Source: a virus (lineage: Duplodnaviria; Heunggongvirae; Uroviricota; Caudoviricetes). From it: a stretch of 10,052 nt of DNA. Shown piece after piece: positions 5,920-6,268 of this stretch (position 1 is the stretch's first letter; each line of letters starts with the position of its first letter). A program made the position numbers and the translations under genes. The notes under the pieces are model-generated. The model was given only the letters and a program-made list of their open reading frames with translations. It did no database searches and was not told where the DNA came from. The stretch is from the IMG/VR virus record IMGVR_UViG_2711768011_000003, one strand, 5' to 3'.

Positions 5920-5994
5920 TGGAGCGGGCAGCGGGAATCGAACCCGCATCATCAGCTTGGAAGGCTGAGGTAATAGCCATTATACGATGCCCGC
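5920..5994 (-). tRNA. tRNA-Gly (anticodon UCC)
   Basis: Minus-strand sequence GCGGGCATCGTATAATGGCTATTACCTCAGCCTTCCAAGCTGATGATGCGGGTTCGATTCCCGCTGCCCGCTCCA folds as a cloverleaf by hand: 7-bp acceptor stem, anticodon loop CTTCCAA, T-loop TTCGATT, 4-nt variable loop, U73, encoded CCA. Appears identical or near-identical to E. coli glyT from memory. Confidence 0.85.
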
Positions 5995-5997
5995 ATA

Positions 5998-6073
5998 TGG
6001 TGCCGACTACCGGAATCGAACTGGTGACCTACTGATTACAAGTCAGTTGCTCTGCCTGCTGAGCTAAGTCGGC
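5998..6073 (-). tRNA. tRNA-Thr (anticodon UGU)
   Basis: GCCGACTTAGCTCAGCAGGCAGAGCAACTGACTTGTAATCAGTAGGTCACCAGTTCGATTCCGGTAGTCGGCACCA. Acceptor stem GCCGACT/AGTCGGC, anticodon loop CTTGTAA, A73, CCA. Closely resembles E. coli thrU with D-loop differences. Confidence 0.85.
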
Positions 6074-6075
6074 GC

Positions 6076-6152
6076 TGGCCCACCACCGAGGACTCGAACC
6101 TCGCACCGTCAACTTAGAAGGTTGATGCTCTATCCGGATGAGCTAGTGGTGG
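6076..6152 (-). tRNA. tRNA-Arg (anticodon UCU)
   Basis: CCACCACTAGCTCATCCGGATAGAGCATCAACCTTCTAAGTTGACGGTGCGAGGTTCGAGTCCTCGGTGGTGGGCCA. Perfect 7-bp acceptor stem with an unusual C1:G72 pair, D-stem GCTC/GAGC, anticodon loop CTTCTAA, T-loop TTCGAGT, CCA. Confidence 0.8.
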
Positions 6153-6153
6153 T

Positions 6154-6230
6154 TGGTGGCCCTTGCTGGACTTGAACCAGCGACCTGGCGATTATGAGTC
6201 GCTCGCTCTGACCAACTGAGCTAAAGGGCC
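6154..6230 (-). tRNA. tRNA with CAU anticodon; probably tRNA-Ile2 (lysidine), which software may call tRNA-Met
   Basis: GGCCCTTTAGCTCAGTTGGTCAGAGCGAGCGACTCATAATCGCCAGGTCGCTGGTTCAAGTCCAGCAAGGGCCACCA. Acceptor stem GGCCCTT/AAGGGCC, anticodon loop CTCATAA, A73, CCA. Strong resemblance to E. coli ileX/ileY-type tRNA as I recall it. Confidence 0.8.
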
Positions 6231-6239
6231 GGAGGCAGA

Positions 6240-6268
6240 ATAATAACCATATGTCATCACATCTGCAA
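6240..6268 (-). promoter_or_regulatory. Candidate sigma70 promoter for the tRNA array
   Basis: Minus strand: TTGCAG (-35, 6263-6268), a 17-nt spacer, TATTAT (-10, 6240-6245), then 9 nt to the first tRNA 5' end at 6230. Confidence 0.35.

Follow-up and report, generated by a model that had tools for sequence, protein, structure and literature searches.

Introduction

What does a tight cluster of tRNA genes do in a phage genome that lives in a bacterium with its own full set? The question is raised by the 10,052-base stretch of Caudoviricetes DNA analysed here (IMG/VR virus record IMGVR_UViG_2711768011_000003; "the window" below means this whole stretch), which carries an array of genes for tRNA-Ile2, tRNA-Arg, tRNA-Thr and tRNA-Gly. 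The array could serve the phage, serve the bacterium that harbours it, protect translation against nucleases, or be a passenger. We consider it likely that its four tRNA genes are functional and form a compact operon in a lambdoid prophage of Shigella sonnei Ss046, and that it supplies decoders for codons that are scarce in the host.

In lambdoid phages, tRNA genes downstream of the antiterminator gene Q are common and match the codon bias of the phage; in SfI, for example, a bias towards ACA fits a tRNA-Thr(UGU) gene (PMC3636060). More generally, phage tRNAs tend toward codons that the phage uses in excess and its host sparingly (PMC4032129). The array of the window is an ordinary, already annotated lambdoid late-region tRNA cluster, and its locus has been in public genomes for years; a literature search found no paper on the four-gene composition or on its promoter, and tRNAs go unmentioned in a comparative paper on pR'. 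For the window itself, the outcome of this study is mainly a tidy annotation, that of a phage-borne, functional-looking and probably self-contained transcription unit.

Four tRNA genes in a lambdoid prophage

The tRNA genes that ARAGORN predicts in the window number exactly four and share the minus strand. The Rfam tRNA model (RF00005) recovers the same four with 56.4-70.5 bits, the gathering score being 29, and E-values between 3e-10 and 4e-14 show that these matches are not due to chance. Found by two independent tRNA predictors, the four genes are real; the initial annotation, made from the sequence before this analysis, had placed them correctly and had omitted their strand. The array spans 6230-5920 and is transcribed in the order Ile2, Arg, Thr, Gly, with spacers of 1, 2 and 3 nucleotides (nt) and with an encoded CCA as the 3' end of all four genes, so that the close packing and the CCA ends claimed earlier can be read directly off the sequence. 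The anticodon loops are all 7 nt long with U33 and A37: CUCAUAA (Ile2), CUUCUAA (Arg), CUUGUAA (Thr) and CUUCCAA (Gly). The statement that all four genes fold cleanly holds for cloverleaf models and needs qualification otherwise: Ile2 has an A27-C43 mismatch where host ileX and ileY have G-U, and the minimum-energy structures given by RNAfold contain no cloverleaf for Ile2 or Thr. Failure of minimum-energy folding to give a cloverleaf is common for unmodified tRNA sequences, and we judged these structures uninformative for tRNAs.

The window is 100% identical to the chromosome of S. sonnei Ss046 (CP000038.1) on both flanks of a stretch that is masked with N, and a 253-amino-acid protein encoded beside the array is found on this one public contig. 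The genes of the window, assigned by Pfam and all on the minus strand (Table 1), follow the order DnaB-RusA-Q-isrK/C4-ORF6N-terminator-array-holin-lysozyme-Rz-HNH-terminase-portal; the start of the holin gene falls in the masked stretch, and the gene was called in the source contig. With phage genes on both flanks, the array is part of a lambdoid prophage and opens its late region, between Q/ORF6N and the lysis and terminase genes, which agrees with the initial annotation. A host operon adjoining the prophage was also considered and is ruled out by these flanks and by the fact that the host thrU-tyrU-glyT-thrT operon is a separate locus by tufB.

Table 1. Features of the window and the evidence for each (the array and its predicted signals first, then the surrounding genes)
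Feature	Position	Strand	Evidence
tRNA-Ile2 gene, anticodon CAU, ileZ/ileX/ileY type	6154..6230	-	ARAGORN (as Met/Ile2(cat)); Rfam, 70.5 bits
tRNA-Arg gene, anticodon UCU (AGA, weakly AGG)	6076..6152	-	ARAGORN; Rfam, 56.4 bits
tRNA-Thr gene, anticodon UGU (ACA/ACG/ACU), thrU-like	5998..6073	-	ARAGORN; Rfam, 69.8 bits
tRNA-Gly gene, anticodon UCC (GGA/GGG), glyT-like	5920..5994	-	ARAGORN; Rfam, 64.9 bits
Predicted sigma-70-type promoter: -35 TTGCAG (6268-6263), 17-nt spacer, -10 TATTAT (6245-6240)	6240..6268	-	Sequence and conservation
9-nt stretch TCTGCCTCC from the -10 box to the first tRNA base (6/9 G+C, 8/9 pyrimidines)	6231..6239	-	Sequence
Predicted intrinsic terminator (AAACCCGCCGATGAGCGGGTTT, then a T run); distance to the array promoter downstream about 55 nt	6323..6344	-	Sequence scan
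pR'-like late promoter TTGACC-18-TATATT, 3' of Q	7459-7430	-	Promoter scan
DnaB-type helicase	8465-9997	-	Pfam
RusA	7840-8211	-	Pfam
Antiterminator Q	7464-7871	-	Pfam Phage_antitermQ, 2.7e-52
ORF6N-domain protein	6420-7181	-	Pfam
Lysozyme	4642-5139	-	Pfam Phage_lysozyme
Rz	4181-4657	-	Pfam Phage_lysis
HNH endonuclease	3788-4138	-	Pfam
Small terminase	3172-3675	-	Pfam
Large terminase	1442-3175	-	Pfam
Portal	92-1339	-	Pfam

Identity of the four tRNAs

Identities were computed against the tRNA genes of E. coli K-12 and of the Stx2 phage Stx2a_F349 (AP012530.1). The Thr and Gly genes are host-like, as had been proposed: the Gly gene is identical to K-12 glyT at 75/75 positions and the Thr gene to thrU at 74/76, the two differences being U16C and U20C, both in the D-loop. 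The reading of the CAU gene as Ile2 is likewise borne out. It is 96% identical to ileZ of Stx2a_F349, 92% to ileY and 90% to ileX, whereas its identity to metT/metU is only 69%; its acceptor stem has C4:G69 and C5:G68 in place of the U4:A69 and A5:U68 of metT; and the label given by PGAP to identical copies is tRNA-Ile. TilS distinguishes Ile2 from tRNA-Met via C4:G69 and C5:G68, and the CAU anticodon of Ile2 decodes AUA after lysidine modification. In a related locus (L084, 2545-2621), the first gene has changed from CAU to UAU, with the loop CCUAUAA and C33; this form would decode AUA without lysidine.

The Arg gene is 83% identical to argN (anticodon UCG), 73% to argU and 60% to argO. Its sequence, 5'-CCACCAC...GTGGTGG-G-CCA, gives a C1:G72 pair and a discriminator base G73. 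It has the C1:G72 acceptor stem and the D-arm in common with argN, and its anticodon is UCU (as in argO), in contrast to the UCG of argN. The C1:G72 pair, singled out earlier as unusual, is therefore present but is a trait of the family and not a peculiarity of the window copy, since the argN scaffold shares it. The identity elements of E. coli ArgRS are A20, C35, U36 and A/G73. In the window copy, the D-loop AUCCGGAUA has an A (A20) after G18 G19, the UCU anticodon has C35 and U36, base 73 is G, and 21/21 stem pairs are standard. When 14 scaffold variants were aligned, four pairs were found to covary (3:70, G-C to A-U; 4:69, C-G to U-A; 30:40, A-U to G-C; 51:63, G-C to A-U), with values reached by at most 1/500 shuffles.

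Relation to the Stx-phage cluster and the host operon

Among known systems, the ileZ-argN-argO cluster of Stx phages of the 933W type comes closest; Stx2a_F349 was used for the comparison. Both arrays lie downstream of Q and upstream of late/lysis genes, begin with the same Ile2 gene, and continue, after a single-base A spacer, with a gene on the same C1:G72 scaffold (the 96% and 83% identities given above). The window array differs in that the argN-scaffold gene carries UCU (AGA) where the Stx phage has UCG (CGA/CGG), and in that thrU-like and glyT-like genes stand in place of argO, a G1:C72 Arg-UCU gene. Furthermore, no stx cargo follows the window array, and an isrK/C4/ORF6N module intervenes between Q and the array. 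Thus, the earlier description of the set as the Stx trio plus Thr and Gly is right about the Thr and Gly genes but not about the trio, as argO is absent and the sole Arg gene is the argN scaffold with UCU; the site corresponds to the one in Stx phages, although the intervening module keeps the two from being identical. Judged by its sequence, the array is a mosaic, in which an ileZ/argN-type module is joined to a thrU/glyT-type module.

As a source of the latter module, the host thrU-tyrU-glyT-thrT operon upstream of tufB had been suggested. Its mature thrU and glyT are 97% and 100% identical to the genes of the array and stand in the same order, whereas tyrU, thrT, the 8-, 116- and 6-nt spacers, the promoter region and tufB are all absent from the array; the phage Thr and Gly genes are joined by TAT, and the flanks are unrelated. 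Inspection of the host operon against the phage flanks and spacers found no homology outside the mature sequences. Considering the strong constraint on mature tRNAs and that thrU and glyT are the same in Salmonella, identity can neither date nor prove a capture. The capture of Thr and Gly from this operon, which the mature sequences support and the operon context (tyrU, spacers, flanks) does not, is therefore plausible but unproven, because no flank homology remains.

The tRNA genes of SfI, Sf6, ST64T and P21 (Asn-GUU, Thr-UGU; PMC3636060) occupy the same niche downstream of Q and include a Thr(UGU) gene; going by their description, they differ from the window array in partners and number. The clusters of the virulent phages T4 and T5, which include the PARIS-resistant tRNA-Lys of T5 (PMC11464382), likewise consist of tightly packed tRNA genes that supplement or replace host tRNAs, but with much larger sets than that of the window.

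Predicted promoter and transcription layout

The initial annotation had also noticed a TTGCAG-17-TATTAT promoter 9 nt upstream of the array. The site is present, and since a single-sequence scan is uninformative when taken alone, we used comparative footprinting. In 37 distinct 70-nt sequences upstream of Ile2-first arrays, scored for TTG in positions -38 to -36 and for TAT in positions -15 to -13 relative to the first tRNA base, the motif TTGCAR-17-TATYAT stands at a fixed 9 nt from that base in 35; in the remaining two, an insertion has shifted a similar promoter. Across six lineages, defined by spacers less than 75% identical, the mean pairwise identity is 0.82 in the -35 hexamer and 0.86 in the -10 hexamer, compared with 0.43 in the 17-nt spacer and 0.26 in the 22 nt further upstream. 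The likeness to the Stx cluster extends to this site: TTGCAA-17-TATTAT is found 9 nt before ileZ in Stx2a_F349. The conservation of the motif suggests that the array has its own Q-independent promoter.

The 9-nt stretch that separates the -10 box from the start of the first tRNA gene is probably a discriminator with a very short leader. Related arrays have CCTGCGCCC, TCTGCTCCC or CTCGCTCCC in its place, and discriminators of stable-RNA promoters resemble such G+C-rich, mostly pyrimidine stretches after the -10 box. The first purines in the plausible start window are G1 and G2 of the tRNA itself, so the leader may be at most a few bases long and is possibly absent. Another promoter-like sequence, TCGGCA-16-TATAAT (10/12), lies across the Thr-Gly junction at 5979-6006 on the minus strand; its TATAAT is part of the glyT D-arm, and the match is probably a by-product of the tRNA sequence.

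The terminator upstream of the array promoter has a homologue at the same place in FDAARGOS_944, a second prophage with an identical array, where it comes right after a Q-like gene. On the 3' side of the array, the source contig has two terminator-like hairpins (L139, 7521-7540 and 7876-7902, the latter just before the holin gene), both in the part that is masked in the window. With these signals, the array has the look of a unit insulated by a terminator at either end, with the promoter and the four tRNA genes in between. The pR'-like promoter is a probable second source of array transcription after induction.

In the mechanism that we infer, which covers promoter activity, processing, charging, modification and a fitness effect of the array, the sigma-70 promoter would drive transcription independently of the late switch, in the lysogen and in early infection, while the terminator would shield the array from any RNA polymerase that arrives from upstream without the Q modification. 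After induction, by analogy with the known behaviour of lambdoid late operons, Q-modified RNA polymerase from pR' would pass the upstream terminators, read through the array and add late transcription. RNase P would cleave each 5' end, host 3' exonucleases would trim the leftover 1-3-nt spacers from tRNAs in which CCA is already encoded, and host TilS would add the lysidine that Ile2 requires before AUA decoding. The four tRNAs would then enlarge the supply of decoders for AUA, AGA (and AGG), ACA, and GGA (and GGG), codons that are scarce in the host and over-used by the prophage genes and other acquired A+T-rich genes of the strain.

Codon usage and the role of the array

Codon usage was compared in the ten genes of the window (2,609 codons), in 42 from the FDAARGOS_944 prophage (8,867 codons) and, for the host, in 39 K-12 core genes from 50 kb (14,370 codons). 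Per 1000 codons, ATA rises from 3.0 in the K-12 core to 7.7 in the window and 10.7 in the second prophage, AGA from 1.2 to 5.4 and 6.8, ACA from 5.8 to 14.9 and 13.0, and GGA from 7.2 to 10.3 and 14.0. When the 59 degenerate codons are ordered by their enrichment in the genes of both prophages over the K-12 core, the list begins with AGG, AGA, ATA, CGG, ACA, CGA and GGA, which puts the cognate codons AGA, ATA, ACA and GGA at ranks 2, 3, 5 and 7. The top codon AGG is a wobble partner for the Arg tRNA, as GGG (rank 12) is for the Gly tRNA, and CGG and CGA, which are also enriched, are the codons decoded by argN in Stx phages. The enrichment is at least as strong in early genes as in late genes, which fits a Q-independent promoter. 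The four codons had been described earlier as rare or of low usage in E. coli, with the late genes proposed for comparison; they are indeed low in the E. coli core and enriched in prophage genes, but ATA is barely so in the late genes of the window.

Several points weigh against an operon that supplies scarce-codon decoders. ATA stands at 3.8 per 1000 in the window late genes versus 3.0 in the K-12 core, and the enriched codons CGG, CGA, TCA and AGT have no tRNA in the array. The codon test was post hoc, with a 50-kb K-12 sample as the host and one gene set from another prophage. In sister arrays, a Lys(UUU)-like gene replaces Arg; since AAA is the common codon for Lys, codon supply does not account for all members of the array family. 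C1:G72 is unusual for an Arg tRNA and may bear on RNase P and ArgRS. As for the promoter, its score in a single-sequence consensus scan is weak (9/12, in a register shifted by one base), the region has 4 promoter-like sites where 2.2 are expected from shuffled sequence, about as many as in the shuffled sequence, and conservation is its one line of support.

A Q-independent promoter would act in the lysogen, and the array might accordingly be kept for the bacterium, relieving a shortage of rare tRNAs for acquired A+T-rich genes such as those of type III secretion on the virulence plasmid. The conserved promoter motif would suit such lysogenic conversion, as would the possibility of several arrays in one genome (three in S. 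flexneri SFBU1023 and three in E. coli ECMA0423). The ipa-mxi-spa, virA and icsA genes of pSS_046, the virulence plasmid carried by Ss046, contain, per 1000 codons, 31.5 ATA, 15.2 AGA, 22.6 ACA and 17.1 GGA, to be set against the K-12 core values given above, and AGA and ATA are their two most enriched codons. Plasmid codon usage, however, speaks of demand only; ACA and GGA come at ranks 7 and 11 in the plasmid genes, a poorer match than in the prophage genes; and the array family is common also in E. coli without such plasmids, as seen among the complete genomes described below. We regard a benefit to the bacterium as a rather unlikely main explanation, and one that overlaps with decoder supply rather than excluding it. 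If the promoter is Q-independent, the prophage would alter the rare-tRNA pool of its lysogen, and the resident array could influence the translation of Ss046 virulence genes, as the type III secretion genes are rich in ATA and AGA. In these pSS_046 genes (L228), ATA and AGA are 10-13 times as frequent as in the K-12 core, and AAT, TTA, AAA, TCT and TCA are also in large excess.

Alternatively, the array may keep translation going against anticodon nucleases of the host or of competitors (PrrC, colicin D, PARIS AriB, VapC-type toxins), either through nuclease-insensitive tRNA variants or by replenishing the pool. There are precedents: the tRNA-Lys of T5, whose anticodon stem-loop is unlike that of the host, resists PARIS (PMC11464382), and nuclease-resistant phage tRNAs with changes in the anticodon loop have been proposed more generally (PMC10264068). 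That signature is absent from the window, where all four loops are those of host ileX/ileY, argU, thrU and glyT. AriB cleaves in the anticodon stem (PMC11464382), and there the Arg gene, on its non-host scaffold, differs from argU (UCAAC/GUUGA versus ACGAC/GUCGU) and Ile2 differs from the host at 27:43, whereas the Thr and Gly stems are the same as in the host. Indeed, Thr and Gly, at 97-100% identity to thrU and glyT, would be cut like the host copies. In the sister arrays, the loop of the Lys(UUU)-like gene is altered, and nucleases classically attack tRNA-Lys(UUU); we know of no enterobacterial anticodon nuclease that acts against Ile2, Thr(UGU) or Gly(UCC). The tRNA set of the window, in turn, fits the codon-enrichment ranking well. 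Judging from these sequences, an anti-nuclease role, conceivable for the Arg tRNA, is unlikely to be the main role of the array, and the supply of scarce-codon decoders remains our preferred explanation.

Distribution of the array family

To follow the family, we scanned for pairs of a Thr and a Gly gene no more than 12 nt apart and ran ARAGORN on all loci found. The scan retrieved more than 120 IMG/VR viral contigs and, among one-genome-per-species references, Citrobacter braakii, Enterobacter hormaechei, Shigella flexneri and E. coli ECMA0423; single genomes can hold three arrays each, as noted above. A match in Photobacterium is an unrelated host operon. The loci listed comprise at least 53 arrays of the type Ile2-Lys(UUU)-Thr-Gly, at least 35 of the type Ile2-Arg(UCU)-Thr-Gly, at least 23 with Thr-Gly only, and a few others. 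A site covering at least 80% of the 311-nt array is present in 603 of 5,426 complete E. coli genomes (11%), and one with at least 99% identity to the window array in 10 of them. Variants are also found in deposited phage genomes, e.g. vB_EcoS-689R5, PhiR47_1 and phi467. The array is thus a common portable cassette, of which the Arg(UCU) version is the rarer form in E. coli.

Homology of the window to other phages begins at the 3' end of the Gly gene and gives out a little way upstream of the -10 box, and the same array can follow various Q-type genes and precede various late regions, which is typical lambdoid mosaicism. The same facts could be taken to mean that the array is neutral cargo whose tRNA sequence merely offers a homology patch for swapping Q and lysis modules: the limits of homology coincide with the array edges, one array goes with different partners on either side, and some copies are decayed (a broken Gly gene in E. 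coli RMDEC332, and Thr-Gly arrays with slot-2 remnants). Such a passenger would hardly be kept as it is, however. Among the loci listed, the Arg gene has at least 25 identical copies across different contigs and the Gly gene 111 of 128; the stems carry compensatory changes; the promoter hexamers are conserved beside a diverged spacer; and the cognate codons stand at the top of the enrichment list. Together these indicate selection on function, in contradiction to the passenger reading, which we consider very improbable.

TAT joins Thr and Gly in almost all copies, and the pair also travels alone. In arrays of Thr-Gly only (e.g. L033, L044 and L069), a conserved inverted repeat, GGTTCCGAGGG...CCCGAGGAACC, lies directly upstream of Thr and replaces the promoter; some other Thr-Gly arrays have remnants of a decayed slot-2 gene, slot 2 being the position of Arg in the window. 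In E. coli RMDEC332 (L138, 305-375), the fourth gene is annotated as tRNA-Val; it is glyT-like, with the loop CUUACAG and a broken 3' acceptor end. A switch of the Gly anticodon was considered for this gene and rejected, as the broken acceptor end marks it as a decayed copy at a recombination junction.

Variation of the second gene

The second gene is the variable one. On the slot-2 scaffold, with its C1:G72 pair and invariant D-arm, the loops CUUCUAA (Arg-UCU), CUUCGAA (argN) and CCUUUAA (the UUU form) are found. The UUU form, which combines C33 with a mismatched A-C pair in its T-stem, is present in at least 64 prophage contigs. There are, in addition, 73- and 74-nt versions with an almost invariant body and at least 13 short loops, seven of them of 5 nt (NNNAU) and six of 6 nt; examples are UAAAU, UUAAU, UUUAU, UGAAU, CCAGGU and CUUGGU. 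The anticodons that ARAGORN assigns to these short forms include AAA, UAA, UUA (ochre-suppressor-like), GAA and UGA, and the short forms are unable to make a 5-bp stem topped by the usual 7-nt loop. Variant loci include L010, L016, L041, L052, L085, L101 and L189-L227, the window equivalent being the Arg gene.

The copies were gathered by fixed patterns, and columns fixed by these search patterns were discounted in testing where the variation lies. In the 73-nt class, 3/5 loop columns vary versus 1/18 free columns outside (p = 0.02), and in the 74-nt class 5/6 versus 3/18 (p = 0.007). The variation of slot 2 is concentrated in the loop. A megablast search with the short scaffold against isolated phage genomes did not find the short forms; its matches, in phages of Yersinia, Proteus and Cronobacter, were confined to the Ile2 gene next to them.

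One tentative reading is that slot 2 is an exchangeable decoding position or specificity loop, whose anticodon loop has been repeatedly rewritten in an adaptive manner; we hold this to be possible, with more doubt than confidence. If so, slot 2 would be more than a fixed rare-codon tRNA, and would let prophages retune the A/U-rich codon that they support, or offer a decoy or specificity element to tRNA-targeting systems. The variable slot could also serve as a natural series for the study of anticodon change on one tRNA body.

Neighbouring elements

The N run at 5319-5856 has 538 bases and stands for 653 bases of the source contig (L139, 7326-7978), so that the two lengths disagree. It contains the spacer between tRNA-Gly and holin and the first 36 nt of the holin gene. 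Read in the source contig, the masked stretch has a long CCCGCCAGCAA...TTGCTGGCGGG hairpin and gave no match in Rfam. The ATG start of an 85-amino-acid open reading frame of the related locus L001 is lost in it.

Between Q and the array lie several RNA elements, all on the minus strand. An isrK-type RNA (7423-7347) begins 7 nt past the -10 box of the pR'-like promoter and has its own terminator at the end; c4-a1b1 target sites (7436-7384) and a P1/P7-type C4 antisense RNA (7321-7238) accompany the antirepressor-like ORF6N gene. The module from Q to the array resembles the AntQ/IsrK/AnrP locus of Gifsy-1 (PMC4825925), as if fused with a layout like that of P1 immI. Within the first 78 codons of the ORF6N frame, Rfam finds a full-length match to sRNA-Xcc1 (77.4 bits; 7021-7104, minus strand). 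The Pfam domain of ORF6N does not begin until residue 79, and there is a TTGACA-17-TACATT site at 7218-7190. Considering the RNA match in the first 78 codons and the late beginning of the domain, the true start of the ORF6N protein may be further downstream, and the stretch at 7021-7104 may be an RNA element.

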